64,000 bases of DNA from Isurus oxyrinchus (taxonomy: Eukaryota). The notes beneath the pieces are model-generated. The model was not told the DNA's origin. It was given only the letters and a program-made list of their open reading frames with translations, and did not search any database. Position numbers and translations under genes: made by a program. This document shows, one piece after another, positions 2,698 through 61,701 of the stretch. Location of the stretch: NCBI GenBank assembly GCA_026770705.1, contig JANJGN010000121.1, positions 62,001-126,000 on the forward strand, written 5' to 3'. Position 1 is the first letter of the stretch, and every line of letters starts with the position of its first letter.

Positions 2698-2946
2698 TCA
2701 GTTTTTCTGGAACCTGATCTGTGTGTATTCCGTGTCCTCGCTCCTGTGTACAGTCCTGTCACCGCTGGGCAGCTTTGAAAAGTTGATGTTGGCGTAGAGA
2801 AGCTCGTCGGTATTGTCGGGGTTCCCATGTCCAACATCGCCTCCCACTAGACCTTCAGAGAGACCCCGGGGAGCTGGGGTCTCCCCCTCGCTAGTTGTGT
2901 CTCTGGTTGTGTTCCGGGGCTCAGTAATCAGCACGTTCTGTTTACC
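2698..2946 (-). CDS. Gene 1 last exon: cytoplasmic tail with ITIM (LLYANI) and ITSM-like motif (TEYTQI)
   Basis: Acceptor tctctgtag|GGT AAA CAG; translation ...DELLYANINF...EDTEYTQIRFQKN*, the two-tyrosine layout of CD33-related Siglec tails. Confidence 0.9.
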   Translation of the reverse strand, partial: GKQNVLITEPRNTTRDTTSEGETPAPRGLSEGLVGGDVGHGNPDNTDELLYANINFSKLPSGDRTVHRSEDTEYTQIRFQKN

Positions 2947-5900: not shown

Positions 5901-7914
5901 AGGACAGTTAGAGAGAGAAAGGTCGTCAAGTATGGAGATTGGAAACAAAGACCTGACAGCCTTGTCCTGACAACCATTGAAGGAGAAACTGAGAGCAAAA
6001 ACAGAAAGGGAGAGGAAAAATTGGATGTGTGGATAACGTGGACTGAACGAGGATTGAAGAAAACTGGATTAAAAACAACACGATCCCAATGGCTCCACGG
6101 AGACCACGGAAACAACAAACAAACAAATGTATCTCCACACTCACATTCCACAGTGATGGTTATGAACCCCTCCACTGCTCCATGTTCATTCTCTGCCACA
6201 CACTGATAGTCTCCAGTTTCCCTGGATGTAACGTGAGGAATCACCAACCACAGCTCATTGTTGGAACTTGTTCTGTTCATTGGGACATTAAGATGTCGCC
6301 ACGTCAGGTTAGAAGCTGGGAAGCTCTCGACAGAGCAGATTATCACTGCAGAATTCCCCTCAATTATATTGATCGATGAAGCATTAATCATTTCAAGAGA
6401 AGTAAATAAGAGGTTCTGTGGTGCATCTAAGAACAAATCAAGTGTTTAATGTGAGCAAGCACAGTTTACAGCTAGACTCCATGCATCATCTCTCTGTATC
6501 TGATGTCTGTATGCATAGCCAGGTCCCTCCACTCCATATAACTTCCATTGTCAAATTTATAATGGGCACTGCCTATGTAAACAGTCAAACTGCAGCTACG
6601 TTCTCCCACCAGTAGAGGTGCTGTCCACCTAGAATGAAAGGAACTTCCTTTCACATCCTCAGGATGTCCCCAAGGGCTTGACAGGCAATGTTTGATCGAT
6701 GGAGCACTGAGGGGTAAATATACAGTTCTCTGTTCAGGAGGTTGCTCATCCAGTTCAGGGACTTGTTGATCTGTAGTTTACCTTCGTTCCATCCAGAATT
6801 GGAGCTGATACCGAGACTCCAGTGCAGTGAGTGCTTGTGTGTGCGTGTGGATGTGCATTGGTGTATATGTGTTCAAATCTGAGAGAGATGTTGAAGTCTG
6901 TGTACACTCACATTCCACAGTGATGGTTATGAATCCCTCCACTGCTCCATGTTCATTCTCTGCCACACACTGATAGTCTCCAGTGTCCCTGGATGTAACG
7001 TGAGGAATCACCAACCATAGCTCATTGTTGGAACTTGTTCTGTTCATTGGGACATTAAGATGTCGCCACGTCAGGTTAGAAGCTGGGAAGCTCTCGACAG
7101 AGCAGATTATCACTGCAGAATTCCCCTCAATTATATTGATCGATGAAGCGTTAATCATATCAAGAGAAGTAATTGAGAGATTCTGGGTGCGTCTAAAAAT
7201 AAATAAAGATTTTAATGTGAGCAAGCATAGTGCACAGCAAGACTCCATGCATCATCTCTCTGTATCTGATGTTGGAATGCCTTTCCAGGTACCTTCCCTC
7301 ATGAAAAATTACTGTCACATTTATAATGGGCATTTCCTATGTAAACTGTCACACTGCAGTTGCATTCTCCCACCAGTAGAGTTGCTGTCCATCTAGAATG
7401 AAAGAAACATTCTTTAACACTCTCAAGATGCCCCCAAGGGATTGAAAGCCATTGAATTGTATTTGATTGATGGAGCACTGAGGGGTAAATATACAATTCT
7501 CTGTTCAGGAGGTTGCTCCATCCAGTTCAGGGTCTTGTTGATCTGGAGTTTACCTTCCTTCAACACAGAATCGAAGCTGATACCGAGACTCCAGTGCGGC
7601 CCTGAGAGAGAAGAGGGGCCTCACGCGTGTTTATGTGTATGTGTTTGTGTTTCTACATATGTGAGTATGTTTGTGTGAGTATGCATGCATGTGTCTGTGT
7701 GTGCATGTGTGTATGTGTTTGGGCATATGTGAGTGTGTCTTTGTGTATATTTCTGTGCATGAGTGAATGTGTGTACATGTGTATGTGTATGTGTGTGCAT
7801 GTGTGAGTGTGTGTGTGTGAGTTGAGTGTGTGTATGTTTCTGTGTATATTTTTGCATGCGTATGTTTGTGTGTGTAAATGTGCATGTATGTGTCTACACG
7901 AGTGCATGTGTGTG

Positions 7915-7976
<62 letters not shown>

Positions 7977-10900
7977 TGTGTGAGAGTGATGTTGAAGTTT
8001 GCATTAACTCACATTCCACAGTGATGGTTATGAATCCCTCCACTGCTCCATGTTCATTCTCTGCCACACACTGATAGTCTCCAGTGTCCCTGGATGTAAC
8101 GTGAGGAATCACCAACCACAGCTCATTGTTGGAACTTGTTCTGTTCATTGGGACATTAAGATGTCGCCATGTCAGGTTAGAAGCTGGGAAGCTCTCGACA
8201 GAGCAGATTATCACTGCAGAATTCCCCTCAATTATATTGATCGATGAAGAGTTAATCATACCAAGAGAAGTAATTGAGAGATTCTGTGGTGCATCTAAAA
8301 ACAAATAAACATCAATTAACTTACACTGACTGTGAAACACTTTGAGAGACACTGAGAATGTGAAAGGTGTGATATCAATATAGGTTCTTTCACCACAAAG
8401 CCCATAATCCAGCCAGACACCTCAGTTCAGTACTGAGGGAGTGCTGCATTGTCGGAGGGTCAGTACTGAGGTAGTGCTGCACTGTCAGTGGATCAGTACT
8501 GAGGGAGTGTTGCACTGTCACAGATTCAGTACTGAGGGAGTGCTGCACTGTCGAAGGGTCAGTACTGAGGGAGTGCCGCACTGTCGAAGGGTCAGTACTG
8601 AGGGAGTGCTGCACTGTCAGTGGATCAGTACTGAGGGAGTGTTGCACTGTCAGAGGTTCAGTACTGAGAGACTGCTGCAGTGTCAGAGGTGAATTTGTAT
8701 CAGTTAAAGACGATTGATTTGTAGCTAAACACAATGAATTTGTGGGATCTTGCAGTGTACTATGTGGAGCTCTCTAGCTAATATAGAATGAAAGGTGTAT
8801 GTAATTACCTTGCACAGTTAGTACGAGGGTCCGCTCCGATGAAACAGATGGATATCTCACTCTGCAGCTGAGAGTGTGTCCGTGGTGTTTGAGTGATGGG
8901 AACAGGGTCAGAACAGAAGTATAGATCAGAGAGACACCATGCTGAGTTACAGTGTTTGAGACTGATCCAGGTACGTCAATGGGAGTGTCCCAGGTTAAGA
9001 CAGGTGCTGCTGTTCCATTGCACGTTGTGTTGAAGGTGCAGCTTACATCCACACGCTTTCCTGCAATAATTTCAGCAGGGAATATCGTGGTTTTATCTGT
9101 GAAATCTAACAGACAGAGAATGGATCCTTTTAGAGAAATATAACGTGAAGCATCAGTTCAAATAGAAATCACAGTCCCACAAGAGAAAGCACTTTTACAA
9201 GGATGATATCAGAACTGAGATGTTTTAACGATCCTGATAGACTGTTAGACACGATTAGAAAGATCGATGGGAGTGGAATACATTTAATCATTGATATTAA
9301 AGTGAGTATTAAAGGTTGCTTTAGGACTGAACTGGAAGCGATCACCAGGTTATTGAGAATCAGACAGTGTGTTATAATAAGCTGTGTTTTGTGTTAATAT
9401 GTAAACGTCACAGTTTGTGTTATTTCCCATCGAGTGTTGAATGTGAATTGTTGAGTAATTATAACACAGCACTTACCAGAAACGTGAAGCTGGGTTACAG
9501 GGTAATAGTTATGGCTCGGACCATTGTCAAATTCTATTCTGAAAAAATAAGGTTCTGCATCATCCCGTCTGATGTTGTTTATAATCAGGGAACAGTCGCC
9601 ATCTTTCAGGTCTCCAGACAGCCGGGTCCGATTGTGGAACCGTGGTAACTCGTGACTGTGATCCTTGGAGTGAAAGGCAATGGGAGCCCAGGGAATCTGT
9701 TTCTCATTATTAAACCAGACTCCACCTCGTTGTTGGTTTTCAAATTTTGCTGGATAACTGTAATGACATGGAATCTGTACACACGAACCTTCCTGCGCTG
9801 ACACCTCTCGTGGAGTGTCACCTTTCCACTCTTGTGACAGTCCAACTGGGGAGAGAAATCTCAATATTTAACTCTGGAAGGTTTGTAGATCCACTAGACT
9901 CGATATCCACCCCCTCCATCACTGGGGCACAGTGGCTGCAGTGTGGACCATCTGCAGGACACACAAGGAACTCCCCAAGGTTTCACAATGGATGGAAGTG
10001 AATCCTGGACACAGGAGTGGACAAGTTCATTCTACATTGGCTCATGGTCCTCAGGACCCTGTTTAATGAAGCCAGTCTTCCTCCCAACACAGTGTCTACA
10101 AGACACACCAATTGAGATCCATTCAGTGCTGATTTACAAGACAGGACAATGGATTAGGAGCCCTCAGAACTCCCCCCATTATCACCGTCATGAATCACTA
10201 ATTAGCCTAACATTCCTGTCTGCTCTTCAACACAGCTGATTGGCTAATCTGATTCAATCTGATTGGTGTTCATTCCCTCTTCAATGTTTAAGAAATCACC
10301 AATCACTCGGCCTCTAGTTATTCTCCTCCCCACAAGGGGAAATATTCTCTGTCTACCCAGTCAACTAAAAACTTTCCTCTGAACCTACCATCATACCCCT
10401 ATGTTCCTTTCTCCCTCATGTGTTAATCCAGGTTCCGTCTTAAATACATCAATACTATTCACCCCAGCCACTCCCTGTGGGAGCGAGTTCCACATTCTCC
10501 CCACTCTCTGGGTAAAGACGTTTCTCCGGAATTCCCCATTGGGTTTATCAGTGATGATCTCATATTGAGGGCCCCTAGTTCTCGTCTCCTCTCCCAACAA
10601 GAGGAAACACTCTCTCTGTATCCACTCCATCGAAACCTTTCTCAGTTTTAAACACCTGGATTAGGTCATCCCCTCAGCCTTGTCTCTTCTAGGGAAGAGA
10701 GACCCAGCCCGTCAGTCCTGTCCTCATATGTTTACCCCCACATTTCTGGGATCATCATTGTCAATCTTCTCTGCGCCCTCTCCAGTGTCTCTATATCCTT
10801 TTTATAACACGGTGACCAGAACTGCAGGCAGCACGGTCAATGTAGACTGACCAAGGTTCAATACAGGTTTTCCATCACTTCCCTGCTTTTCAATTCACTC

Positions 10901-12998
10901 CCTTTCGGAATAAAGTCTAGCGTTTGGACTGCTATTTTTCTGACCTGGTTAATGTGTGGTGTAACTTTTGGTGAATGATGTATCTGTATCCGTTCTCCCT
11001 GTGTTCCTCCATCCCACCTTGGCCTGAGATCCAGACTGACCTCGTGCATCGTGAGCAGAGAGCCGGAACGCCGAGTCCTCACAGACCTCGGGACGTTCAC
11101 ACGTGCGCGGGGGGCTCGCAGCACAATTTGCTGCTTCTGTCATTTTTGGGGGGGGCCGAGGCAGACCCCAGGGTGTCTGTGCAAAAATGGAATCTTGTCA
11201 CCTTATTCTCTTAGCAAGTGTCTTGAATCTCAAACAACGTCTACTTGAAACAAAACGTTATTGGTTCCTGACTGAACTTCACCAAAAAAAAAATTGGGTG
11301 CCTGTTCCTCCATCAGCAACTCTTCAGAATCCTGCTGAAGTCACGGATATTTCAGAAGGACAGGGAACAAGAGGTTTCTGGTATCAGCGTTTTGTGTGGG
11401 GCCCAGTTCAGTTTGAACAAATAAACAGCACCATCTTTGAAAGTCATGAACCCAACCCACCTTTCCCGTTCTCTCCAGTGTTTTTCTCTCTCTTGCTCGA
11501 TAATTTGATTCTGCCAAGGACCCCTTGGAAAATCATGGACCACAATTAGACAACCAATGGAATAAGAAATCTCTTTGGATGCTCATTGTCTAAGGAATCT
11601 CTTTGGATCTTCATTGTCTAAGGAATCTCTTTGGATCCTCATTGTCTAAGGAATCTCTTTGGATCTTCATTGTCTAAGGAATCTCTTTGGATCCTCATTG
11701 TCTAAGGAATCTCTTTGGATCCTCATTGTCTAAGGAATCTCTTTGGATCCTCATTGTCTAAGGAATCTCTTTGGATCCTCATTGTCTAAGGGATTATTTC
11801 TGATCCAAACCCCATATTGTTGTATTGTTGATTCCGATGCAGCATTGTAGACTGACTTGTCCCCAAGCTCAGCACTGACCCTACTCCAGCAGACACTGTG
11901 AAACACACTAACAAAGCGCCTCTAGCCTGAGCTCTGCATGTGTCGGAGGTGCCACTGTGGTGGGTTCATGACTTTCAAAGATGACGTTGTTTATTTGTTC
12001 AAACTGAACTGGGTCCCATATGAAACGCTGATACCAGAAACCTCTTGTTAACTGTCCTTCTGAAATATCCATGATTCAGCAGGATTCTGAAGATTTGCTG
12101 ATAAGGATCTAAAATTCTCTGATTGTTGAATGATACAGCACAGGAGGAGTTCATTTGACCCATCGTGCATGTGCTGGCTCTTTCCCAATTCCTCTCCAGC
12201 ACCTTTCACACATCCCTGCAAATTTCCCTTCAAGTATTTATCCAGTTCCCCTTCTGAAAGTTCCTGTTGAATCTGCTTCCACCGCCCTTTCAGGCAGTGA
12301 GTCAATGGTCTCTCTCTGAGCTGCAAAGTGCTCAGATTCTGTGAAATTTAAACTCTGCAGCAGATCAGAGACACTCATGATAACTCAGAATACACAGACA
12401 GCTTTGCCTCCCTTCTCTCTTTCAGTTATCTTGCTCCCTTATCAAAGTTTCTGGCATGGTGAGAATGGACAGGAAGTGTGACACTGAACAGCCTGTCTAT
12501 TCTAGGAGCTGCTGTGTTGTCTTCATGGGAAATTCTGTCTAATATCAGCAAAAGACACAAATTTCAGGATATTGCTATCAGAATCCTAGCACCTGGATAG
12601 ATTTCATCCCCCAGGTTCTTTCCCTGATTTTCAGCTCAACCCATCACTCCCCATCTATCACTGACCAACAGCCGACATCACCTGAAGTTTAAGATTCTGC
12701 TCTAGCTGCTACAATCCTGCCTAATTGTGTAACCGTCTCCAGCCCCTACAACGCTCTGAGATCTCTATTCTTCTCCAATTCTGCTGTCAGACAGGGAGTC
12801 AGTGTATATCAGTGAGCACAGGGGTGATGGGTGAATGGGACTTGGTGTCAGTTTGTACACTGGCTCACTGCTGAATTAGTTCCCAATCACAGCTCAATAA
12901 GAATGATCTTTACAAAGACACTTTACCATAAATCTGTCCAAGCTGACGATCATATTACCTTGGAGAAGTGACAGGAGGAAGTAAGATTTCCTGATCAT
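2698..12998 (-). CDS. Gene 1: inhibitory Siglec/MAG-like receptor (multi-exon: leader-V-D2-C2x3-TM-cyt1-cyt2)
   Basis: Exons 12959-12998, 9477-9845, 8809-9105, 8013-8294, (6912-7192 frameshifted), 6145-6426, 5231-5327, 4460-4541, 2698-2946 have GT-AG ends. They join in frame if 6912-7192 is skipped. Confidence 0.88.
3137..4250 (+). repeat. 33-bp minisatellite (CACTCCCTCAGTACTGACCCTCTGACAGTGCAG)n
   Basis: Direct inspection; source of the VQHSLSTDPLT/RECCTVRGSVL pseudo-ORFs. Confidence 0.95.
4460..4541 (-). CDS. Gene 1 first cytoplasmic exon (RKTATQERVSGTSDIALTPRSLSVKHQ)
   Basis: ttattgcag|G...CAG|gtacag; 82 nt, phase 2 to 0, fits both neighbours; paralogous copy at 27758-27839. Confidence 0.8.
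4645..4910 (+). mobile_element. Gypsy solo-LTR fragment
   Basis: Similar to 53143-53205 joined to 54457-54647 (gacatcac...ggaagtgtg.catgtgat...gtttcacttt...cattataa). Confidence 0.55.
5231..5327 (-). CDS. Gene 1 transmembrane exon (RDSSKWTVGLFTAGIMLSVFLAGIFIFICVRK), uncharged TM
   Basis: tttttacag|GT...AGAAA|gtaagt; hydrophobic stretch followed by basic residues; not in the ORF track. Confidence 0.9.
6145..6426 (-). CDS. Gene 1 Ig C2/I-set exon, copy a
   Basis: 282 nt, phase 1-1; C..W..DYQC Ig signature (IICSVESFPASNLTW...GDYQCVAENEHG). Confidence 0.9.
6912..7192 (-). pseudogene. Gene 1 Ig C2 exon, copy b, with a 1-nt deletion near its 5' end
   Basis: 281 nt vs 282 in siblings; ag|ACGCACCCAGAAT vs ag|ATGCACCACAGAAT; splice sites intact. 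Confidence 0.75.
7620..7982 (+). repeat. (TG)n-rich microsatellite
   Basis: Direct inspection; similar tract at 33308-33440. Confidence 0.95.
8013..8294 (-). CDS. Gene 1 Ig C2/I-set exon, copy c
   Basis: 282 nt, phase 1-1, nearly identical to copy a. Confidence 0.9.
8428..8690 (-). repeat. 33-bp minisatellite, reverse orientation
   Basis: Direct inspection. Confidence 0.9.
8809..9105 (-). CDS. Gene 1 Siglec domain-2 (C2-set) exon
   Basis: 297 nt; FTDKTTIFPAEIIAGKRVDVSCTFNTTCNGTAAPVLTW...LSCRVRYP; has the extra Cys that Siglecs use for the D1-D2 disulfide. Confidence 0.9.
9477..9845 (-). CDS. Gene 1 Siglec V-set exon with essential Arg (YFFRIE)
   Basis: 369 nt, cccag|TT...TCTG|gtaagt; Siglec Cys pattern GSCVQIPC...GDCSL with no F-strand Cys; Arg at the sialic-acid-binding position. 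Confidence 0.92.
10380..10940 (-). mobile_element. CR1 LINE 3' fragment
   Basis: RRNVFTQRVGRMWNSLP motif typical of the CR1 ORF2 C-terminus. Confidence 0.75.
11568..11791 (+). repeat. 28-bp tandem repeat (AATCTCTTTGGATCCTCATTGTCTAAGG) ~8 copies
   Basis: Direct inspection; a shorter array in the same context lies at 60722-60876. Confidence 0.9.
12959..12998 (-). CDS. Signal-peptide exon, cassette 1 (MIRKSYFLLSLLQ)
   Basis: ATG...CAAG|gtaata, 40 nt, phase 1; G+TT joins the V exon to give ...LLQVGLSQEW. Confidence 0.85.
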
Positions 12999-13448
12999 TG
13001 TCTACTCCCAGATATTACATTCACTTCTCAATCTCAAACTCTGAAAGAGAAAGGAGTTAATGAGACCTCACCTCTTGTCCGACAGCTCTCAAGAGATCAG
13101 AACTCCTTTTAGACAATGTCTTCACTGACTAATTTGATTCACGGTGGGATGATAGGTGCTCTGCAGAGAGTTACAAGGCTTTAAGGAAGAAAAACAATGA
13201 AGGATTTGCATTTGTATAGCACCTTTCACCACCTCAGAGCATCCAAAATCTCATGTCACTCCACTTCCCTCATCCCTTGAGCTAGAAAGATGTTCTGTAC
13301 AACAGACTTGACCCTCACACCCAGATCTCAATAATCAGTAGAAATCTTTCAAAGGCATCAATCATTGGAATCTGTCTTTATAAAGTCACAACATCAACAA
13401 AGTACGGTGTTGGCGGTGGAAGTGAATTCCAATCGTTCCGTTACTTAC

Positions 13449-13590
13449 CCAGGACCTGTCCGACTGCTCGCCTGGGGAGGAACTGCCCACACGCTCTGCT
13501 TGGGCTGAATGACCTCTTCCTGTGCTGCTCCCTCTGTGTATTTAATTAGAAAGAGCTGATGTGTCTCTGTGAGACAAAATGAGGAAGTTG
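13449..13590 (-). promoter_or_regulatory. Putative promoter and non-coding exon 1 with PU.1/ETS site, repeated in all seven cassettes
   Basis: Strong donor CTGG|gtaagtaa at 13449; AAATGAGGAAGT at 13577-13588 (AAAAGAGGAAGT at 15337; also ~17096, 18860, 37795, 60150, 62274). Similarity between genes stops shortly upstream of this site. Confidence 0.55.
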
Positions 13591-14725
13591 GAACAAAGTG
13601 AGTGAACAGCACTTAGCTGTGCACTGTTAGCAAACCCTGTGTCTGTATAAGAATATAAGAACAGAACAAGTAGGATCAGCTGGACACCCTGACATTTTCA
13701 TTCCTTACATGCCAGCCACTCATTTTTTTATCCACTCACTGAAACTATTTATCTTCCTCTGCAGCCTCTTTGTGTCCTCCTCACAACTTGCTTTCCTGCC
13801 CAGCTTATATATTTCCTACCTATCTTCACCATACAGTCAGAAAATCTGCCTACAGTACAGTCAGTCCCTTCATCCAAGTCACTAATGTAGATTGTGAATA
13901 GTTGATGCTTTGAAATATCTGTCTAATTATTCCCACGCTCAGCTCTACTCTCTCCTCCAAAGCCCTGCAAAATTTGCCCTTCAAGTATTTATCCAGTTCC
14001 CCTTCTGAAAGTTCCTGTTGAATCTGCTTCCACCGCCCTTTCAGGCAGTGAGTCAATGGTCTCTCTCTGAGCTGCAAAGTGCTCAGATTCTGTGAAATTT
14101 AAACTCTGCAGCAGATCAGAGACAATCATGATAACTCAGAATATTTGTCACCTTTACACACGGACAGCTTTACCTTCCTTCTCTCTTTCAGTTATCTTGC
14201 TCCCTTATTGAAGTATCTAGCATGGTGAGAATGGACAGGAAGTGTGACACTGAACAACCTGTCTATTCTAGGAGCTGCTGTGTTGTCTTCATGGGAAATT
14301 CTGACTAAAATCAGCAATAGACACAAAATTACAGCGCATTGTTATCCGTGTCCTAGCATCAGGATAGCTGTCATCCCCCTGTTTTTTTCCCTGATTTTCT
14401 GCTCAACCCATCACTCCCCATCTATCACTGACCAACAGCCGACATCACCTGAAGTTTAAGATTCTGCTCTAGCTGCTACAATCCTGTCTAATTGTGTAAC
14501 CGTCTCCAGCCCCTACAACGCTCTGAGATCTCTATTCTCCTCCAATTCTGCTGTCAGACAGGGAGTCAGTGTATATCAGTGAGCACAGGGGTGATGGGTG
14601 AATGGGACTTGGTATGAGTTTGTACACTGGCTCACTGCTGAATTAGTTCCCAATCACAGCTCAATAAGAATGATCTTTACAAAGACACTTTACCATAAAT
14701 CTGTCCAAGCTGACGATGATATTAC

Positions 14726-14765
14726 CTTGGAGAAGTGACAGGATGAAGTAAGATTTCCTGATCAT
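14726..14765 (-). CDS. Signal-peptide exon, cassette 2 (MIRKSYFILSLLQ)
   Basis: Intact ATG and donor in the second tandem unit. Confidence 0.75.
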
Positions 14766-16477
14766 TGTCTACTCCCAGATATTCCATTCACTTCTCAATC
14801 TCAAACTCTGAAAGAGAAAGAATTTAATGAGTCCTCACCTCTTGTCCGACAGCTCTTGCAAGATCAGAACTCCTTTTAGACAATGTCTTCACTGACTAAT
14901 TTGATTCACGGTGGGATGATAGGTGCTCTGCAGAGAGTTACAAGGCTTTAAGGAAGAAAAACAATGAAGGATTTGCATTTGTATAGCACCTTTCACCACC
15001 TCAGGGCATCCAAAATCTCGTCACTCCACTTCCCTCATCCCTTGAGCTAGAAAGATGTGCAGTACAACAGACTTGAGCCTCACACCAGATCTCAATAATC
15101 AGTAGAAATCTTTCAAAGGCATCAATCATTGGAATCTGTCTTTATAAAGTCAACATCAGCAAAGGACGGTGTTGGTCGTGGAAGTGAATTCCAATCGTTC
15201 CGTTACTTACCCAGGACCTGTCCGACTGCTCGCCTGGGGAGGAACTGCCCACACGCTCTGCTTGAGCTGAATGACCTCTTCCTGTGCTGCTCCCTCTGTG
15301 TATTTAATCAGAAAGGGTTGATGTGTCTGTGTGTTTAAAAGAGGAAGTTGGAACAAAGTGAGTGAACCGCACTTTGCTGTGCACTGTCAGTAAACCCTGT
15401 GTATGTATAAGAATATAAGAACAGAACAAGTAGGATCAGCTGGACACCCTGATATTTTCCATTCCTTCTATGCCAACCACTCATTTTTTTATCCACTCAC
15501 TGAAACTATTTATCTTCCTCTGCAGCCTCTTTGTGTCCTCCTCACAACCAGCTTTCCAGCACAGCTTATATATTTGCTACCTATCTTCACCATACAATCA
15601 GAAAATCTGCCGACAGTACAGTCAGTCTCTTCATCCAAGTCATTAATGTAGATTGTGAATAGTTGATGCTTTGAAATATCTGTCTAATTATTCCCACGCT
15701 CAGCACTACTCTCTCCTCCAAAGCCCTGCAAAATTTCCCTTCAAGTATTTATCCAGTTCCCCTTCTGAAAGTTCCTGTTGAATCTGCTTCCACCGGCCTT
15801 TCAGGCAGTGAGTCAATGGTCTCTCTCTGAGCTGCAAAGTGCTCAGATTCTGTGAAATTTAAACTCTGCAGCAGGTCAGAGACACTCATGATAACTCAGA
15901 ATATTTGACAGTTTTACACACAGACAGCTTTACCTTCCTTCTCTCTTTCAGTTATCTTGCTCCCTTATCAAAGTGTCTATCATGGTGAGAATGGACAGGA
16001 AGTGTGACACTGAACAGCCTGTCTATTCTAGGAGCTGCTGTGTTGTCTTCATGGGAAATTCTGACCAAAATCAGCAAAAGACACAAATTTCAGGTTTTTG
16101 CTATCAGAGTCCTAGTACCTGGATAGATTTCAGGTTCTTTCCCTGATTTTCTGCTCAACCCATCACTCCCCATCTATCACTGACCAACACTCGACATCAC
16201 CTGAAGTTTAAGATCCTGCTCTAGCTGCTACAATCCTGCCTAATTGTGTAACCGTCTCCAGCCCCTACAACCCTCTGAGATCTCTATTCTCCTCCAATTC
16301 TGCTGTCAGACAGGGAGTCAGTGTATATCAGTGAGCACAGGGGTGATGGGTGAATGGGACTTGGTATGAGTTTGTACACTGGCTCACTGCTGAATTAGTT
16401 CCCAATCAGAGATCAATAAGATTGATCTTTACAAAGACCCTTTACCATAAATCTGTCCAAGCTGACGATGATATTAC

Positions 16478-16517
16478 CTTGGAGAAGTGACAGGAGGAAG
16501 TAAGATTTCCCGATCAT
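16478..16517 (-). CDS. Signal-peptide exon, cassette 3 (MIGKSYFLLSLLQ)
   Basis: Intact ATG and donor in the third tandem unit. Confidence 0.75.
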
Positions 16518-18243
16518 TGTCCACTCCCAGATATTCCATTCACTTCTCACTCTCAAACTCTGAAAGAGAAAGGAGTTAAATAGACCTCACCTCTTGTCCG
16601 ACAGCTCTCGAAAGATCAGAACTCCTTTTAGACAATGTCTTCACAGACTAATTTGATTCACGGTGGGATGATAGGTGCTCTGCAGAGAGTTACAAGGCTT
16701 TAAGGAAGAAAAACAATGAAGGATTTGCATTTGTATAGCACCTTTCACCACCTCAGAGCATCCAAAAGCTCATGTCACTCCACTTCCCTCATCCCCTGAG
16801 CTAGAAAGATGTTCTGTACAACAGAATTGAGCCTCACACCCAGATCTCAATAATCAGTAGAAATCTTTCAAAGGCATCAATCATTGGAATCTGTCTTTAT
16901 AAAGTCACAACATCAACAAAGGACAGTGTTGGTGGTGGAAGTGAATTCCAATCGTTCCGTTACTTACCCAGGACCTGTCCGACTGCTCGCCTGGGGAGGA
17001 ACTGCCCACACGCTCTGCTTGGGCTGAATGACCTCTTCCTGTGCTGCTCCCTCTGTGTATTTAATTAGAAAGAGCTGATGTGTCACTGTGAGACAAAATG
17101 AGGAAGTTGGAACAAAGTGAGTGAACCGCACTTTGCTGTGCACTGTCAGTAAACCCTGTGTCTGTATAAGAATATAAGAACAGAACAAGTAGGATCAGCT
17201 GGACACCCTGACATTTTCATTCCTTCTATGCCAACCACTCATTTTTTTATCCACTCACTGAAACTATTAATCTCCCTCTGCAGCCTCTTTGTGTCCTCCT
17301 CACAACTTGCTTTCCTGCACAGCTTATATATTTCCTACCTATCTTCACCACACAGTCAGAAAATCTGCCTACAGTACAGTCAGTCCCTTCATCCAAGTCA
17401 CTAATGTAGATTGTGAATAGTTGAGGCTTTGAAAGATCTGTCCAATTAGTCCCACGCTCAGCTCTACTCTCTCCTCCACAGCCCTACAAAATGTCCCCTT
17501 CAAGTATTTATCCAGTTCCCCTTCTGAAAGTTCCTGTTGAATCTGCTTCCACCGCCCTTTCAGGCAGTGAGTCAATGGTCTCTCTCTGAGCTGCAAAGTG
17601 CCCAGATTCTGTGAAATTTAAACTCTGCAGCAGGTCACAGACAATCATGATAACTCAGAATATTTGACAGTTTTACACACAGACAGCTTTACCTTCCTTC
17701 TCTCTTTCAGTTATCTTGCTCCCTTATTGAAGTATCTAGCATGGTGAGAATGGACAGGAAGTGTGACACTGAACAGCCTGTCTATTCTAGGAGCTGCTGT
17801 GTTGTCTTCATGGGAAAATCTGTCTAAAATCAGCAAAAGACTCAAATTTCTGGTTTTTGCTTTCAGAATCCTAGCACCTGGATAGATTTCATCCCCCAGT
17901 TTTTTTCCCTGATTTTCTGCTCAACCCATCACTCCCCATCTATCACTGACCAATAGCCGACATCACCTGAAGTTTAAGATTCTGCTCTAGCTGCTACAAT
18001 CCTGCCTAACCCTGTAACCTCCTCCCGCCCCTACAACCCTCTGAGATCTCTATTCTCCTCCAATTCTGCTTTCAGACAGGGAGTCAGTGTATATCAGTGA
18101 GCACAGGGGTGATGGGTGAATGGGACTTGGTATGAGTTTGTACACTGGCTCACTGCTGAATCAGTTCCCAATCACAGCTCAATAAGAATGATCTTTACAA
18201 AGACACTTTACCATAAATCTGTCCAAGCTGACGATGATATTAC

Positions 18244-18283
18244 CTTGGAGAAGTGACAGGAGGAAGTAAGATTTCCCGATCAT
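18244..18283 (-). CDS. Signal-peptide exon, cassette 4 (MIGKSYFLLSLLQ)
   Basis: Intact ATG and donor in the fourth tandem unit. Confidence 0.75.
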
Positions 18284-19169
18284 TGTCCACTCCCAGATAT
18301 TCCATTCACTTCTCACTCTCAAAATCTGAAAGAGAAAGGAGTTAATGAGTCCTCACCTCTTGTCCGACAGCTCTTGAAAGATCAGAACTCCTTTTAGACA
18401 ATGTATTCACTGACTAATTTGATTCACGGTGGGATGATAGGTGCTCTGCAGAGAGTTACAAGGCTTTAAGGAAGAAAAACAATGAAGGATTTGCATTTGT
18501 ATAGCACCTTTCACCACCTCAGAGCATCCAAAATCTCATGTCACTCCACTTCCCTCATCCCTTGAGCTAGAAAGATGTGCAGTACAACAGACTTGAGCCT
18601 CACACCCAGATCTCAATAATCAGTAGAAATCTTTCAAAGGCATCAATCATTGGAATCTGCCTTTATAAAGTCAACATCAACAAAGGACGGTGTTGGTGGT
18701 GGAAGTGAATTCCAATCGTTCCGTTACTTACCCAGGACCTGTCCGACTGCTCGCCTGGGGAGGAACTGCCCACACGCTCTGCTTGGGCTGAATGACCTCT
18801 TCCTGTGCTGCTCCCTCTGTGTATTTAATGAGAAAGGGTTGATGTGTCACTGTGAGACAAAATGAGGAAGTTGGAACAAAGTGAGAGAACAGCACTTTGC
18901 TGTGCACTGTCAGTAAACCCTGTGTCTGTATAAGAATATAAGAACAGAACAAGTAGGATCAGCTGGACAATCTGACGTTTTCATTCCTTACATTCCAACC
19001 ACTCATTTTTTTGTCCCCTCACTGAAACTATTTATCTCCCTCTGCAGCCCCTTTGTGTCCTCCTCACAGTTGAAGGGTCATGAGGACTCGAAACCTCAAC
19101 TCTTTTCTACTCCGCTGATGCTGCCAGACCTGCTGAGTTTTTCCAGGTAATTCTGTTTTTGTTTTATAT

Positions 19170-21950
19170 ATTTCCTACCTATCTTCACCACACAGTCAGA
19201 AAATCTGCCTACAGTACAGTCAGTCCCTTCATCCAAGTCACTAATGTAGTTTGTGAATAGTTGAGGCCTCAGCACTGATCCCTGTGGCTCTCCACTAGTT
19301 ACAGTTTACCAAGCTGAAAATCACCCATTTATCCTGGCTCTCTGTTTCCTGTCAGTTAGCCAGTCCTCTATCCATATTAATATATCCCCCCCAACACCAT
19401 CCAATTTCACCCTGTGCAGTATCCTTTGATGTGGGGCCTTATCAAAAGCCTTTTGGAAATCCAATGTCATGAAGAGATATTTGTGTGTAAAATGTGCTTG
19501 GAAATTATTATTTAAAATAGAATTCTAGTGGTGGTCCATGTATAGGTGTGTGTCTGGGTGTGTCTTAATTGGAATAAAGCCAGTGGGTTTGTCTGCTTTG
19601 ATGTTTAGTAGTTTTGAGATGTTAATTGGGTGAATTGTGAGGAGAACAGTAAAGTGTTCATTTGCAATTGTTGAATAAACCATTCCAGACTGGGGGTAAA
19701 ATCTTGCACCTAGTTAGACGGATCCAAAAGATGTGTTTTTTCTTGAACTTACTAATGAAATTGGTGCTATGAAAGGGGGTTTTATTGTTCGAAGAGCTGG
19801 AGTTCAGAAGACCGAGTGATACAATGGAAAATTTACATTCAAAGGGAAAGCTAGCTATATAAAGGAAGGAGTTTGTGTGTGTGAGGCAGGAGCATTTCAG
19901 ACCTAACCAGCCTGTAGCCTCCAACCAACTTGCAAAGGAACCTCATTCAGAATTCGTAATGTCAAATGTGCTTTGCCTGGTGTCTGTATTATGTCAATGG
20001 TTCATTGTTGCCTTAGTAGAGATTTACGTGAGGTTGATTAATTGGGGGATTTGTTAAAAAGTTTTTATAATAGTTATTTGTAGCCAATGTGTATATGTTA
20101 AATTTGTTGTTAAATTAATAAATGGTTTATTTAGTTTTATATAAAAAACCCACAATCATCGGTGGTCTTATTCCTACTGAATTCAAAGTCTTCATCTCGA
20201 AATTACAAACAGCAAAATTGGGTTATGACAGTTGTTTCAAATTTCCCTCTGGGATTTGAACAACTCAGCCTTTACCCTTGGCTGTGTCATAGTCCCTAAT
20301 ACACCACATCTACAGGTTCCCCTTTATCCAATCCACTTGTTACATCCTCGAGGAAATCTAATTATTTTTTCAAACATGATATCCCTTTCACAAACCCATG
20401 TTGACTCTGTCTGATTGAATTATGGTTTTCTAAATGTCCTGCTGCTCCCTCCTTCATAATGAATTCTGGTATTTTCCCAATGACAGATATTAGACTATCT
20501 GACCTGTGGTTTCTTGCTTTCTGCCTCCTCCCTTTATTGAACAGATGTGTTTCATTTATGTTTTTCCAATCCGCTGGGACCTTCCCATAATCTAAGGAAT
20601 TCTGGAAGATTACAACCAATGCATCCACCGTCTCTGCAGCCATTTCCTTTCAGACCCTCACATTCAGGCCGTCTGCTCCATGGGACTTGTCAGCATCTGT
20701 CTCATTAGTTTTCTTAATACTTTTTCTCTGGTGATAGTGATTGTTTTATGTTCCTCCCTCCTTGTTGCACCGTGACTTTCTCCTGCTATTGGGATGGTTT
20801 TAGAGATTTTTACTGTGAAGACAGACACAAAATTCTTGTTGAAAGTCTCTGTCGTTTCCTGTTTCCCATTATTAATTCCCCAGTCTGATTTTCTATGTGT
20901 CCCATTATTACTGTAGCTTCTCTCTTATTTTAATGTACAACATCTCACTGTCATTGTTTATGGTTCTTGCTAGTTTACTCTCATATCATCATTTCTGCCT
21001 CCTTATATTTCTCCCCTCACTTTTCTGGTTTCTCAAATATTCCCAATCTCCAGCCTATCACTAAGCATCCCAACATTGCCGGCTTTATCTCACAATTGGA
21101 TACTGTCCTTAGCTTCCTGAGTTAGCCGCCGATGCTCCATCCTCCTTATAGATTCTTTCTTTCTTACTGGAAAATATCTTCATTGGAATTTATGAAAGAT
21201 CTCTTTAGATGCCTGTTACTCCTCATCTACCCCAATCCCCCCTTTAACCTGCTGTCCCACTCCACTTGGGCCGACTCTGCTTTTAACCCTTGTAATTGTC
21301 TCTAGATAAGTTTATGACACTAGTTTCAGAACCAAGTTTCTAATTTGAATATTAAATTTCAACACCGTAGGATTACTCTTCCCTTGAGGGTCCTTTACAA
21401 TGAGATGTTAATTAGTCTTGTCTCATTAAACATTGCCAGGACTAAAACAGCCTCTTCCCTGGTTGGTTCCACATTGCATTGTTCTAAAATACTGTCCTGA
21501 ATACAATTGCTGAAAGCTACATTTGCTAATTTGAGTTGTCTAATCTGTATGACGATTGAAAACTCCCATGATTATTGTGGTGCCTTTCACACAAACCTCC
21601 GCATGTATTGATTTATAATCTGTCCCTGCAGTGTAACTACTATCAGGGGGGAGTGTAAACCAACCCATCAGAGATTTCTTTCCCTTGCAATTTCTTATAT
21701 TCACCCAAACTGACTGTGCATCTTGACATCTGAGCCAAGATCATTTCTCACTACTTTACAGGTCTCATCTTTTATTAAGAGAGCTATCCCACCTCCTTTT
21801 CATTTTTCCTATCCTTTCAAAGATTCCAAATATCCTTCAATTTTCAATTTCCAACCTTGGTCACCTTGCAACCAACTCTCTGCAGTGTCCATCTTATCGT
21901 ACCCATTAATCTCTATTTGTGCTATAGCTTCATTCATTTTGTTCCAAATT
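19170..21950 (-). mobile_element. Decayed CR1 LINE ORF2, interrupted by a solo LTR
   Basis: IFQNSLDYGKVPADWK...QHGFVKGISCL (ORF 20362-20643). Confidence 0.8.
19465..20292 (+). mobile_element. Solo LTR
   Basis: Starts TGTCATGA, has AATAAA, ends ...gctgtgtcata; homologous to 26897-27622; splits the CR1. Confidence 0.7.
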
Positions 21951-36300: not shown

Positions 36301-37216
36301 CTTGTGACAGTTCAACTGGGGAGAGAAATATCAATATTTAACTCTGGATGGTTTGTAGATCCACTAGACTCGATATCCACCCCCTCCATCTCTGGAGCAC
36401 AGTGGCTGCAGTGAGGACCATCTACAGGACACACATGGAACTCCCCAAGGTTTCATAATGGATGGAAGAGAATCCTGGACACAGGAGTGGACAAGTTCAT
36501 TCTACATTGGCTCATGGTCCTCAGGACCCTGTTTAGTGAAGCCAGTCTTCCACCCAACGCAGTGTCTACAAGATACACAGGGAAACTGTGTAAATATCTC
36601 ATCTCTCTAAACTGACTGGCTTGGCTTCGGTTTAACTTTCAGTTATTTTACTTCCTTATTGTGGTTGCTATGGTGAAACTGTGCAGGAAGTGCGAGGGCT
36701 GGACTCTCTGTCTATTCTGACTGCAGCTGTGATGTGGTCGTTGTGGTTTTCAGTAAAATGAAACCCTCTGAGCTCCTCCATCCCCGAGGTTTAGGGAGTG
36801 AATTCCAGAGCTCAGGCCCCAGGCAGCTGAAGGCCCAGCCGCCAGTATTGGAGTGATGGGAATCGAGGGATGGTCAAGAGGCCGTATTGGGAATAACACA
36901 GAGATCTGGGACGTTGGTTGGGAGAGTTGCAGGAGGTTACAGAGATAAGGACGCAGTGTGAGGCAATGGATGCATTTGAACAAAGAGATGTGAATTTTAA
37001 GTTTGAGATGTTGTAGGACCAGGAGTCAGATAGTTTAGGGGTGATGGGTGAATGGGACTTGGTGTGAGTTTGTACACTGGCTCACTGCTGAATCGGTTCC
37101 CAATCACAGCTCCATAAGAATGTTCTTTTACAAAGACTATTCACCATAAATCTGTCCGAGCTGACGATGATATTACCTTGGAGAAGTGACAGGAGGAAGT
37201 AAGATTTCCCGATCAT
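24325..37216 (-). CDS. Gene 2: Siglec/MAG-like receptor (leader-V-D2-C2-D5like-TM-cyt), possibly with impaired tail
   Basis: Exons 37177-37216, 35947-36315, 34792-35088, 32352-32633, 30028-30321, 28537-28633, 27758-~27839, 24325-24573; an assembly gap lies inside. Confidence 0.85.
24718..25311 (+). repeat. 33-bp minisatellite at the intron position equivalent to 3137-4250
   Basis: Direct inspection. Confidence 0.93.
25440..26810 (+). repeat. 36-bp minisatellite (CCCTCCCTATCTCTGTAACCTCCTCCAGCCCCTACA)n within an L2-like 3' end
   Basis: Direct inspection; shorter arrays at 30636-30825 and, reversed, 50470-50900. Confidence 0.93.
26897..27622 (+). mobile_element. Solo LTR, same family as 19465-20292
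   Basis: TGTCATGA start, shared internal sequence, flanked by (a)gagac-like duplication; absent from the gene 1 intron. Confidence 0.7.
27758..27839 (-). CDS. Gene 2 first cytoplasmic exon with mutated acceptor
   Basis: ttattgcaa|G where gene 1 has ttattgcag|G. Confidence 0.7.
28537..28633 (-). CDS. Gene 2 transmembrane exon (GRDSSKWTVGLFTAGIMLSVFLFGMFIFICVRK)
   Basis: 97 nt, paralog of 5231-5327, splice sites intact. Confidence 0.9.
29165..29680 (+). repeat. AT-rich ~40-bp minisatellite
   Basis: Repeats of taatctatgtaacatttatatataatatttatcaatg. Confidence 0.9.
30028..30321 (-). CDS. Gene 2 membrane-proximal Ig domain, MAG domain-5-like
   Basis: 294 nt, phase 1-1; KPEISQQSECTRRSEGVTCVCVATSNPAGDLTWHLPSANIS resembles the MAG D5 pattern S.C......CxC...SNP.....LPS.N. 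Confidence 0.85.
30930..32020 (+). mobile_element. Penelope-like element 3' fragment with GIY-YIG endonuclease
   Basis: ORF 31177-31506 LIYCIHCSQCGLLYMGQTKHRLGDRSDEH...CHFN...LNIEF. Confidence 0.8.
32022..32300 (+). mobile_element. RTE-like LINE 3' fragment
   Basis: MLRISWMDRKTNEW...TIEGEIESK pattern; truncated copy at 5875-6090. Confidence 0.55.
32352..32633 (-). CDS. Gene 2 Ig C2/I-set exon
   Basis: 282 nt, nearly identical to the gene 1 C2 exons. Confidence 0.9.
33048..33307. other. Assembly gap inside gene 2
   Basis: Run of N adjoining a TG repeat. Confidence 1.
33980..34420 (+). mobile_element. CR1 LINE 3' end
   Basis: ttcttcactcagagggtggtcaatctgtggaattctc...tttctatgt tail. Confidence 0.75.
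34792..35088 (-). CDS. Gene 2 Siglec domain-2 exon
   Basis: 297 nt; paralog of 8809-9105; extra Cys in TLCCRV. Confidence 0.9.
35947..36315 (-). CDS. Gene 2 Siglec V-set exon
   Basis: 369 nt; YFFRIE Arg present. Confidence 0.92.
37177..37216 (-). CDS. Gene 2 signal-peptide exon (MIGKSYFLLSLLQ), single cassette extending to ~37810
   Basis: Same 40-nt leader; exon-1 donor at 37667; PU.1-like site at ~37795. Confidence 0.85.
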
Positions 37217-38029
37217 TGTCCACTCCCAGATATTTCCTCAGCATCTAACTCTGAAGTTCTGAAAGAGAAAGGAGTTAATGAGACCTCACCTCTTGTCCAA
37301 CAGCTCTCGAGAGATCAGAACTGCTTTTAGACAATGTCTTCACAGAATAGTTTGATTCTCTGTGGGATGATAGGTGCTCTGCAGAGAGTTACAAGGCTTT
37401 AAGAAGGTAAAACAATGAAGGACTTGCATTTCCATAGCACCTTTCACCACCTCAGGATGTCCCAAAGCTCATGTCTCTGCAATTCCCTCATCCCTTGAGC
37501 TAGAAAGATGTTCTGTACAACAGACTTGAGCCTCACACCCAGATCTCAATAATCAGTAGAAATCTTTCAAAGGCATCAATCATTGGAATCTGTCTTTATA
37601 AAGTCACAACATCAACAAAGGACGGTGTTGGTGGTGGAAGTGAATTCCAATCGTTCCGTTACTTACCCAGGACCTGTCCGACTGCTCGCCTGGGGAGGAA
37701 CTGCCCACACGCTCTGCTTGGGCTGAATGACCTCTTCCTGTGCTGCTCCCTCTGTGTGTTTAATTAGAAAGGGTGGATGTGTCACTGTGAGTCAAAATGA
37801 GGAAGTGGGTAATGAGTGAGAAGTTCGAGGATGTTTTGTGCTCTCAGCAAAACGTTTACCATGTGTGATCTGTCAGCTCATATTTGGGCAGCTGTAGTCA
37901 TCAAGCTTCTCCATTGGCTCCGTGGGATTAGACCCCTCCCCCTCATCTCAGAGGCTGAAGCGCAGGCGATAGAATTCCCAAATCAGGTCTCTGGCCGTAT
38001 GATACATGTTGACAATCCCTGATATCATT

Positions 38030-56100: not shown

Positions 56101-59100
56101 ACGGTGAGACGAGGAGCGGTGATCGATATTCCACCTCTCACACATATCCTAATGTGGCTTGCCAATAAATTATGGATTGTTGTCCTTAATGATCTCTCTG
56201 GTCACATCAAATAAACTGAAAATGTCCAATAGGGGTGGGATTTTCTGGCCCCACCCACTGCCAGGATTGTCCGGTCCAGCCGAAAGCCAATGGATTTATG
56301 TCTGTCCCATTCTCCCACGGCAGGTCCCACCATGACTGGGCCGCAAAACCCCGGCCTAGAGTTTGTGCAACACTTGTGCTCAACGTATTTTGCAATTGTA
56401 GAACAATTTCACACCTTTTACACCATCAATCTCACGGAGAACAGATGCTGTCTCATCACCCGCACTATTGGCCAAGATTCCAATTATCTGCCCTGAGAAA
56501 GTTGCTACCTCCCCTTTATTGGCCAAGATTGACACAGGGGCAAGTGCCAACATTCCCCTCCCCCAGCTCAAACCAGCAAATTTTCAAAGACATGTATCCA
56601 AGGACATGGAAGGCAATGGAAAACCTACTGCTGTGTACAACACTTCACCAACTCCATGTGCGGAATACATAGTCCTGGGGTGCAAGTACAATCAATCTTC
56701 CTGGGTGTCACAGATGTTCTACATTGTGGAGACTAAACGCTGAGCAATTACAAGTCTACCGTCATGCGGTGACCTCACACTAGTGACAATCCAGGAATCT
56801 GTCAGATCTCACATGGGTCAACCTCAGAAACTACCCCATCACCTCAGTTCATGCCATAACATTGAAATATGCAGAAAGTTTCAACAGTATTGGCAGTTTC
56901 AAGGGAGCTGCAACATTACAGCTGCAGGAGAATGCAAGTCTGTCAATTGATCCAGTATATTTAGCACAACAGAAATGATAGCAGCTACAAGAGGGAACAG
57001 TGAAAAATTCTACAGGAACTGTGGAAATATCATTGAAAGGGTGGCCTGATTCAACTTGACCTCATCGGGATAAGCGAGGCATCTCCCAGGGAGTCATTTT
57101 TAATGGCAGGCATCGCATCATACCGGAACATTTGTGATCCTATATTCTTCAACAACTTCATCCCTCACACATGGGCACAGATCAGACAAGGAGACTCACA
57201 AGAGATACAGTCACTGGCCGGGTATGAACAATGACCTTGAAGTTGTTGTAGGGAAGTACGAGGCTTGTCAAGAGGATGAGCCAAGTCAACACAAAGAACC
57301 ACTGATTCCACAGGAAATTCCTGCCCATTCTTAGTCCAAAATCACATCTGAATCCTTTCATGTCCATGTCACTGACATCATCGTCATCGTCGACAGCTTT
57401 ACCAGATATCCCGTTATTCAAAAATAGCACAACACACCAAGCACAACTGGTGCACACACTCTAAGCACTATTTTCAGTTTATGTGGTGAAACTAGGGACA
57501 TGATTACAGATAATCTGGAATATCAATCACACTACTTCTTCTCCTCATTACCCCAGATCTAACAGCCTAGCTGAATGAATGATTCACACAGTGAAATCCC
57601 TAATTCTCAAATGTAGACAGACCAAGCAAGATCCACACATTGCAATGTTACATCTGAGATCGACACCTACAACTGCAACTTTGTTAAATTCATTCATGGG
57701 ATGTGGGAGACACTGGCCAGGCCAGGATTTATTACCCATCCCTAATGTAAGAGTTAACCACTTTGACGTGGAGTCTGGAGTCACATGTCGGCCAGACAAT
57801 TTTGTTCCCTAAAGGGCACTGGTGAACCAGGTGGGATTTCCAACAATGGTTTTGTGGTCATCACTAAACTTTGAATTTCATATTTTTATTAAATTCAAAT
57901 TCCATCATCTATTATGACAGGATTTGAACCCATATTCTCAGGACATTACCCTGGGTCTCTGAATTACTCATCCAGCAGCAATACCACTACACCATCACCT
58001 CACCTTATTCCGTCACTGACAGAGATCATGTTTGGTGGGCCAGTAGTGACCAATTTCGCTACTCTTACCCATTCTAATCTCTCAGAAACCAGAGGGCAAC
58101 TTTTAAAACTACAAGAGAAGATAAGGAATGTTCATGATAAAAATGGAGGTGCAGAGTTGCCAAGTTTACAGTTGGGACAAGTTCACATCCAGGATCCCAC
58201 AGAAGGTTCATGATCACCAGCCGAGGTGACAAGGATTTGTTCAGAACCAAGGGCCTATGGAGTCAAACACACAAGGGCACAGCGGTGAGGCGGAACCGAG
58301 GATAAATCAGATCCATTCCCGCTCCTATTCCATCGAGGAGAAGATTCCACATGAAATCAGGAACAACATCCAAGGGTGACAATCCCACAGATCACGGTGA
58401 GCAGTTAAAGACACCTCCAGACAAGGTAACCAGCACAAGATCTGGGTGTACCAGAAGGTTAAATCCACACTTTAGAGACTCAAATATTCAACAGTTCCAT
58501 GCACTTATGTAATTGTCAATAAACATGAACATGATATGAGAAACCGCTTGCTCCCTGTCCTTCTCAAAGATCCATTCCTGCAGCAGGAGCCTGAAGAGTT
58601 ATTGAAAAGGGACTTAATTTATCGGATTGTAGAATGATCCGGAACAGAAGGAAGCCATTTGGCCCATCGAACCTGTGCTGGGCCTTTGAAAGATCTGTCC
58701 AATTATTCCCACTCTAACCTCTGCTCTCTCCTCCACCGCCCTGCAAAATATCCCCTTCAAGTATTTATCCAGTTCCCCTTCTGAAAATTCCTGTTGAATC
58801 TGCTTCCACCGCCCTTTCAGGCAGTGAGTCAATGGTCTCTCTCTGAGCTGCAAAGTGATAAGTTTCAATGAAATATAAACTCTGCAGCAGATCAGAAACA
58901 ATCATGATAACTCAGAATATTTGACAGTTTTACATACAGACAGCTTTGCCTCCCTTCTCTCTATCAGTTATCTTGCTATCTTATCGAATTTTCTAGCATG
59001 GTGAGAAGGGACAGGAAGTGTGACGCTGAACTGCCTGTCTAATCTAAGAGCTTCTGTGTTGTCTTCATGGGAAATTCTGATGAAAATCAGCAAGAGAGAA

Positions 59101-59571
59101 AAATTTCAGGGCATTGATATTGGAGTGCTTGCATCAGGATAGACTTCATCCCCCAGTTTTTATCCCTGCTTCTCTATTCAGCCAATCGCTCCCCTGTCAC
59201 TCGCTGTCCTCCACTGGCTCCCAGTCCAACAATGACTCAATTTTCAAAATCTCTTCATTGATTCCTTATCCCTCCATCCTCCCTCTCCACTCCCTATCAC
59301 TGTCACCTCCTCCAGCCCTGAAACCCTTTGAGGTCTCTGCTGTCCTGCAGTTCTGCTGTCAGACAGGGAGTCAGTGTATATCAGTGAGCACAGGGGTGAT
59401 GGGTGAATGGGACTTGGTGTGAGTTTGTACACTGGCTCACTGCTGAATCGGTTCCCTATCAGAGCTCAATAAGAATGTTCTTTTACAATGACTATTAGCC
59501 ATAAGTCTGTCCACGCTGACGATGATATTACCTTGGAGAAGTGACAGGAGGAAGTAAGATTTCCCGATCAT
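41024..59571 (-). CDS. Gene 3: putative activating Siglec-like receptor (leader-V(x4)-D2-TM with Arg, short tail)
   Basis: Leader 59532-59571, V exons at 52140, 48367, 46067 and 43749, D2 42758-43054, TM 41024-41163; all junctions phase 1. Confidence 0.75.
42282..42434 (-). pseudogene. Gene 3 5'-truncated C2 exon remnant
   Basis: Only the HLNITMNRTSS...ITVE half remains; acceptor and first Cys are lost, with an in-frame TGA at the breakpoint. Confidence 0.8.
42758..43054 (-). CDS. Gene 3 Siglec domain-2 exon
   Basis: 297 nt, intact, CAAG|gtaaga. Confidence 0.9.
43749..44117 (-). CDS. Gene 3 V-set exon a
   Basis: 369 nt open frame, AG/GT intact, YFFRLE. Confidence 0.88.
46067..46435 (-). 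CDS. Gene 3 V-set exon b
   Basis: 369 nt open frame, AG/GT intact, YFFRIE. Confidence 0.88.
48367..48735 (-). CDS. Gene 3 V-set exon c
   Basis: 369 nt open frame; divergent DNSNSYSYYPAT segment. Confidence 0.88.
50280..51870 (-). mobile_element. L2 LINE fragment
   Basis: SLLVLLDLSAAFDTLDDTILLQHL and WMGRNSLQLNIGKTE. Confidence 0.85.
52140..52517 (-). CDS. Gene 3 V-set exon d (divergent C-C' region, +3 codons)
   Basis: 378 nt open frame; SSHLVKKTHVGIWYMRRYIQNKWSKWSIAF. Confidence 0.88.
53143..58613 (+). mobile_element. Decayed Ty3/Gypsy LTR retrotransposon with a second LTR nested in its 5' LTR
   Basis: 5' LTR TGTTGT(53143)...ACAACA(54647) followed by a TGG primer-binding site; gag Zn-knuckle CGRCG...CPA...CKACGRKGH; protease KIDTGASAN; integrase remnants (HWPGMNND, HYPRSN.LAE); many stops; most RT and the 3' LTR are missing; insert ~53205-54456. 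Confidence 0.85.
59532..59571 (-). CDS. Gene 3 proximal signal-peptide exon (MIGKSYFLLSLLQ)
   Basis: Intact leader within a cassette at ~58690-60170. Confidence 0.82.
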
Positions 59572-61661: not shown

Positions 61662-61701
61662 CTTGGAGAAGTGACAGGAGGAAGTAAGATTTCCTGATCA
61701 T
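61662..61701 (-). CDS. Distal signal-peptide exon (MIRKSYFLLSLLQ)
   Basis: Intact leader within a cassette at ~61070-62290. Confidence 0.75.

Follow-up and report, generated by a model that had tools for sequence, protein, structure and literature searches.

A putative promoter-leader macrosatellite upstream of Siglec-like receptor genes in the shark Isurus oxyrinchus

The window that we analysed, 64,000 nucleotides of Isurus oxyrinchus DNA, contains a receptor gene (gene 1) whose 5' end is present four times over, and it raises the question of what a gene does with several copies of its own start. The initial annotation had answered that the copies are alternative promoters which yield the same protein. 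We favour, on balance, another reading, in which a 1.76-kb promoter-leader macrosatellite has formed, the receptor comes mainly from its proximal unit and its other units are mostly passengers.

Gene 1 and its repeated 5' end

Judged by its exons, gene 1 appears to be a Siglec-like ITIM gene, with a V-set exon followed by four exons of C2 type, one for the transmembrane segment and a tail that bears tyrosine motifs (Table 1). The V exon matches Pfam V-set (3.5e-10) and Ig_CD22 (5.1e-08), and the top 18 of its best 30 PDB matches are Siglecs or MAG, led by Siglec-5, MAG and Siglec-7. It also contains a YFFR motif, the arginine of which we take from its position to be the essential F-strand arginine of Siglecs; the tail motif was likewise named from what we take to be the ITIM-type consensus. 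CD33-related Siglecs and MAG resemble gene 1 in combining V-set and C2-set domains with a transmembrane segment and a tyrosine-motif tail, but they form a far smaller family than the one found here, whose leader motif has 319 exact matches in the genome. One C2 exon of 281 nt, common to the related locus C121c, introduces a stop after residue 341 if it is included, and the frame is kept, and open as far as the transmembrane exon, only if it is skipped; production of a receptor from gene 1 therefore requires that this exon be skipped.

Table 1. Features of the window and of related genes; positions are those of the window unless a contig is named.
Feature	Position	Strand	Details
Unit A (proximal)	12178..13908	-	start approximate, left end altered; holds a probable promoter, the non-coding and leader exons and the first part of the leader-V intron
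Unit B	13909..15669	-	1761 bp
Unit C	15670..17427	-	1758 bp
Unit D (distal)	17428..19267	-	1840 bp
PU.1/ETS-like site GAGGAAGT, putative	A 13581..13588; B 15341-15348; C 17100-17107; D 18864-18871	+	sequence match
Non-coding exon 1, unit A	13449..13533	-	RNA joins, frame analysis
Exon-1 last bases	A 13449; B 15211; C 16968; D 18732	-	donor GG/GTAAGT
Leader exon A	12959..13040	-	82 nt; ATG 12998; acceptor of its own; RNA joins
Leader exon B	14726..14807	-	ATG 14765; out-of-frame upstream ATG
Leader exon C	16478..16559	-	ATG 16517; out-of-frame upstream ATG
Leader exon D	18244..18325	-	ATG 18283; out-of-frame upstream ATG
V-set exon, Siglec-type, gene 1	9477..9845	-	Pfam V-set, Ig_CD22 and PDB matches
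C2-set exons, gene 1	8809-9105 and 8013-8294	-	
C2 exon, 281 nt, gene 1	6912..7192	-	short by one base; frameshifted
C2 exon, gene 1	6145-6426	-	
Transmembrane exon, gene 1	~5231-5327	-	hydrophobic run without charged residue
Last exon, gene 1	2701..2946	-	ITIM-like and second tyrosine motif
Single cassette, gene 2	37037..37820	-	leader exon 37177-37258
Two cassettes, gene 3	58604..62350	-	leader exons 59532-59613 and 61662-61743
Genes with long C2 runs	G000:C150:1001900-1052200; C121:1323800-1358900; C557 ~336000-353800		L025-L029, L041-L046, L055-L057

The 5' end of gene 1, which lies on the minus strand, consists of four head-to-tail units of about 1.76 kb that span 12178-19267, have boundaries set by a junction motif and share 93.8-95.5% pairwise identity. 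Unit D holds a repeat fragment of ~95 bp (at ~19069-19163) that units A-C lack. The initial annotation had recognised this repeat as the start of the gene, and it was right that every unit retains a PU.1-like site, a strong exon-1 donor and an open leader: GAGGAAGT, which we name PU.1/ETS-like after a consensus that we assume, the donor GG/GTAAGT and a leader open over 13 codons are each present in four of four units. The three leader peptide variants that it listed are likewise all there, and the peptides of the window units differ by one or two residues. It had placed the leader within exon 1, and here we find otherwise: the leader lies 408 bases from the exon-1 donor, on a separate internal exon of 82 nt that has its own acceptor, a 42-nt UTR and the 13 leader codons, and that is spliced to exon 1 in RNA contigs from four studies. 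Exon 1 of unit A can itself be entered by RNA arriving from upstream, through AG acceptors at 13533 (giving 85 nt) and 13566 (118 nt).

At unit A the upstream ATG, 22 nt 5' of the leader ATG (13017-13020), is an ATG-stop. An out-of-frame upstream ATG at this site is found in 110 of 120 array units, as against 2 of 20 single-cassette controls, an association that is due to shared descent and does not count as independent support. We also note that the leader-V intron of gene 1 contains an inverted repeat of 143 bp (92% identity, at 11312-11454 and 11961-12102) enclosing a 28-bp minisatellite, which has 3-9 copies among 17 loci.

The count of seven cassettes in the window stands, but the pair at gene 3 is not the 1.76-kb unit. 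The pair is a separate rearrangement: its members share 86% identity, the array junction is missing, and leader-V intron sequence of the gene-1 type lies between them, so that it is probably what is left of an upstream gene whose body has gone. Double cassettes with a spacing of 2.1-2.3 kb recur in the family, with at least nine pairs among the matches listed on contig C52 of the genome (G000), and they likely derive from similar losses of an upstream gene body; on the same contig a hand count of exact matches, among the matches listed, gives more than one cassette in 13 of 69 leader groups. Gene 3 itself (42279-52520) has four V exons, three of them in 2.3-kb repeats, and one C exon; a C2 exon was matched only in part there, and no match to the transmembrane exon was found.

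Arrays across the genome

The junction between units recurs well beyond the window. Its motif has 84 matches in the genome and none in a reversed control, and fetching the sequence around every junction yielded 24 arrays on 8 contigs, with 2-29 units each and 120 units in all: twelve arrays have two units, three have three, five have four, and there is one each with 8, 10, 20 and 29. No further units were found upstream of the long arrays. A 'unit-end' pattern, with 191 matches spread over many contigs, turned out to belong to an interspersed repeat and served only to pick the 20 single-cassette controls, all on C52. The genes behind the 29-, 20- and 10-unit arrays have very long runs of C2 exons after the V and first C domain (at least 20, 17 and 14 matches, respectively), so that the 5' cassette and the stalk are both amplified in these genes. 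Six other array-bearing genes (L001-L002, L014-L015, L030-L031, L032-L033, L048-L049 and L050-L052) have a different transmembrane exon, ~77% identical to that of gene 1, and no match to the ITIM exon was found in them before the next gene. The array thus appears, from these exon matches, to be attached to more than one kind of tail.

In a tree, units cluster by position across loci, and array units are separate from 19 of the 20 single-cassette controls. Each window unit shares 98.9-99.6% identity with its counterpart at another locus, C385a, compared with only 94-95% among the four themselves. When units are written as types, the strings RNOM, RNONONOM, RPM and RM have fixed ends and a variable core, the 10-, 20- and 29-unit arrays read HYZ...(TVGB)n...UF, and higher-order repeats of two and of four units are apparent; conserved end units with variable middles are the pattern expected of unequal crossing-over. 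Incompatible site patterns form tracts inside the window units. The junction fuses two repeat fragments at a microhomology of 4-5 bp, where, on this sequence evidence, the array would have arisen once; we infer that it then spread through whole-gene duplication, and a single origin followed by growth and shrinkage through unequal crossing-over is likely. The window gene (4 units) and C121c (3 units), which lie on one contig, are 98.3% identical over 14 kb.

The same junction in 24 arrays on 8 contigs, with conserved ends, also bears on whether the array is real, the initial annotation having named an assembly artefact as one thing that would refute its reading. That it is an artefact, or reflects collapsed or expanded haplotypes, seems to us very improbable, given that the window units differ by 4.5-6.3%, that the same ordered units recur at other loci, one of them on the same contig in the opposite orientation, and that an RNA contig from run X7 bridges an array junction (18 differences in 197 nt, depth 2.9). 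A junction contig from run X2 was left out, with 30 letters on one side where the limit was 31. Exact lengths could nevertheless be off in the 20- and 29-unit arrays, where the most similar units are only 0.4% apart, and loci assigned to different contigs may in some cases be alleles. The flanks of the 10-, 20- and 29-unit loci are ~98% shared, an identity which implies that at least two of these loci are separate genes. Copy number varies widely among the related genes of this one genome.

We take the arrays to be a real, family-wide promoter-leader macrosatellite, a class assignment that their sequence supports: kilobase-sized units stand head to tail, in variable number, at 24 loci of one genome. 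The units of the D4Z4 macrosatellite are CpG-rich, and in this respect the array unit differs, being CpG-poor (15 CpG, observed/expected 0.18, GC 44%). In the published account of D4Z4/DUX4, a kilobase-sized unit likewise holds a promoter and first exons, and the last unit, beside unique downstream exons, gives the stable productive mRNA (PMC4351184). The D4Z4 unit described there holds a whole open reading frame and is silenced by heterochromatin, whereas the shark unit holds the leader only and is present at 24 loci.

Splicing into and between units

RNA contigs give evidence on splicing at the level of the family, and the joins are not assigned to single loci. Exon 1 is joined to the leader exon in contigs from five runs and four studies, and the leader to the V exon in contigs from two runs. 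Further joins run from the leader donor to an exon-1 acceptor: we find them in run X1 (both acceptors) and run X4 (13566), which come from two studies with two organism codes, and hence in two of the eight runs compared and two of the six with any splice join. The join was not found in X2, from the same sample as X1; because contigs lose rare forms, its absence from X2, X6, X7 and X14 is uninformative. The X4 leader has 6 differences from unit A, within the range of 4-7 at which many array-lineage units lie and below the 11-15 of the 20 single-cassette controls, so by this measure it appears to be of the array type. The X4 contig is 230 nt long, the length of one exon-1-plus-leader cycle plus the k-mer overlap, and could stem from tandem splicing or equally from a circular RNA; in both cases, use of the acceptor at 13566 needs transcription that starts upstream of the proximal promoter.

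Runs X19 and X22 were rejected as RNA evidence, having even unspliced cover and no splice joins. Contig ends near 13510-13535 give a weak hint of a transcription start site. Loose ends of RNA at 13533-13535 show that in some family members other upstream exons, one of them derived from a repeat, are spliced to the exon-1 acceptor, and other loose ends indicate, again in some members, a further exon downstream of the exon-1 donor (13449).

What a distal transcript could encode depends on its path through the units below it. Among 96 adjacent pairs of units, 81 were testable (15 were skipped, the leader being missing or without an ATG), and in 0 of these 81 is the passage from leader to next unit open in frame under any of three splice paths. 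For the pairs in the window, the upstream leader becomes an ORF of 19, 43 or 54 codons that ends before the next ATG. Every downstream unit also has an acceptor-bearing leader exon and cryptic acceptors ahead of exon 1, so that a distal transcript would have to skip every one of these units in order to yield the normal protein. If a distal unit fires, then, we would expect RNA that is mostly spliced through the downstream units, an upstream ORF of 19-54 codons in place of its leader and little receptor from such RNA. The unit adjoining the V exon is likely to make most of the receptor.

In the protocadherin and UGT1A clusters, too, tandem promoter-exon cassettes stand ahead of shared downstream exons. 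Each cassette there is a genuine first exon, codes for a distinct protein and is spliced directly to the constant exons. The shark array does not fit this type: its leader, by contrast, is an internal exon whose acceptor is used in RNA of four studies, its copies are nearly identical (1-2 residues), and joins from unit to unit break the frame. That each unit instead starts a transcript whose own leader is joined directly to the V exon, so that all units make one and the same mature receptor and their output is additive, we regard as improbable. Leaders are intact in the four units of the window and in all 40 distal units of short arrays, and leader-to-V splicing does occur in the family; however, up to 28 units with good acceptors would have to be skipped, joins into the next exon 1 are found, distal leaders are unconstrained and leaders decay in long arrays. 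Alternative promoters with one product, as originally proposed, are accordingly not the default outcome to which the 81 closed pairs and the leader-to-exon-1 joins in RNA contigs point.

Maintenance of the extra units and its meaning

Whether the extra units are kept by selection is a question on which our evidence is mixed. Isolated single-copy mutations in the promoter, exon 1, acceptor and leader number 25 in distal units, against 27.8 expected, and 1 in proximal units, against 7.7 expected (Fisher p=0.03); recent changes are by this count neutral in distal units and under constraint in proximal ones. We used isolated singletons in place of raw ones (Fisher p=0.004), as the raw figure was inflated by clustered differences. 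The singleton test is weak, since the 20 single-cassette controls themselves show no constraint by it (10 against 9.5 expected). Broken leaders are found in 13 of 56 distal units of the three long arrays, whereas none occurs in the 24 proximal units, in the 40 distal units that belong to short arrays or in the 20 single cassettes; the 13 comprise 6 deletions, 3 lost ATGs, 2 stops and 2 donors, and represent few independent events. A count of broken acceptors was discarded, since a second AG two bases further along can stand in for the altered one. None of the 140 units has lost the exon-1 GT.

The promoter (0.51x) and exon 1 (0.61x) show a depletion of variants private to distal units, most of which are older and shared, and the acceptor (1.71x) and leader (1.15x) show none; the counts are 34 over 177 nt of promoter plus exon 1 versus 32 over 70 nt of acceptor plus leader (p=0.0005). 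This depletion is gone among the most recent mutations (17 vs 19.9 expected), and by parsimony exon 1 is low (0.44-0.61x) and the promoter unconstrained (1.2-1.4x). The older variants hint at some constraint on promoter and exon 1. Their depletion fits a degree of selection for promoter retention; it also fits gene conversion, which among hundreds of copies could mimic such maintenance.

These data also bear on the idea of a regulatory rheostat, in which the extra units would be retained for promoter or enhancer activity and not for their leaders, and their number would set the level or frequency of expression. The initial annotation had suggested that copy number could tune expression, and that upstream promoters could cause transcriptional interference or variegated expression. 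By analogy, a rheostat might work in two ways: stacked PU.1 sites might make the proximal unit fire more, much as spacer promoters act in rDNA, or distal transcripts laden with upstream ORFs might repress or prime it, in the manner of LUTI and of KIR distal transcripts. For rDNA intergenic spacers, PMC1215480 describes a core promoter that is copied in tandem ahead of the gene promoter, in a number altered by unequal crossing-over, and reports enhancement. The shark array is most like these spacer arrays and D4Z4 in layout and turnover, but rDNA is transcribed by Pol I and lacks introns and an ORF, and what is copied in the shark is a Pol II cassette that includes a start codon and two spliced exons. 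In KIR genes, an expanded immune-receptor family (PMC10651540), and in LUTI-type regulation (PMC6469420), transcription from an upstream promoter passes across the proximal promoter and makes RNA that is poorly translated, which the predicted distal RNA of the shark array would resemble; the KIR or LUTI distal promoter is a single distinct element with its own control, unlike the near-identical upstream starts of variable number found here.

Besides these three precedents, the depletion of private distal variants in promoter plus exon 1 agrees with a rheostat, as does a leader-less unit, with promoter and exon 1 kept, that was copied six times in the long arrays, and as do the RNA joins, which reflect transcription across exon-1 acceptors. 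Against this, the depletion is absent for the most recent mutations, the promoter is unconstrained by parsimony, copy number drifts between 2 and 29 among close paralogues, and gene 1 of the window has a frameshifted exon. We therefore think the rheostat rather unlikely, if still to be taken seriously. Under the favoured reading of a macrosatellite with passenger units, any effect of copy number would act through added PU.1 sites or read-through interference and not through extra coding starts.

Our literature searches turned up no description of such arrays in sharks, and a complete Pol II 5' cassette repeated in tandem, with up to 29 copies before one coding body, is unusual. We consider it unlikely, yet worth stating, that the array is a heritable expression dial, with array length (1-29 units) setting the amount of each Siglec-like receptor or the number of cells that bear it; upstream units would then be retained as promoters, their leaders would decay or turn into upstream ORFs, and length would be reset by unequal crossing-over. 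Near-identical genes with 1, 2, 3, 4, 8, 10, 20 and 29 units stand side by side in this genome as a natural series, which allows a direct test of whether promoter copy number adds, interferes or has no effect, and which bears on how a family of hundreds sets its expression. Even if the extra units are passengers, the arrays would be a trap for gene annotation and a clear case of satellite-like turnover creating 5' ends laden with upstream ORFs.
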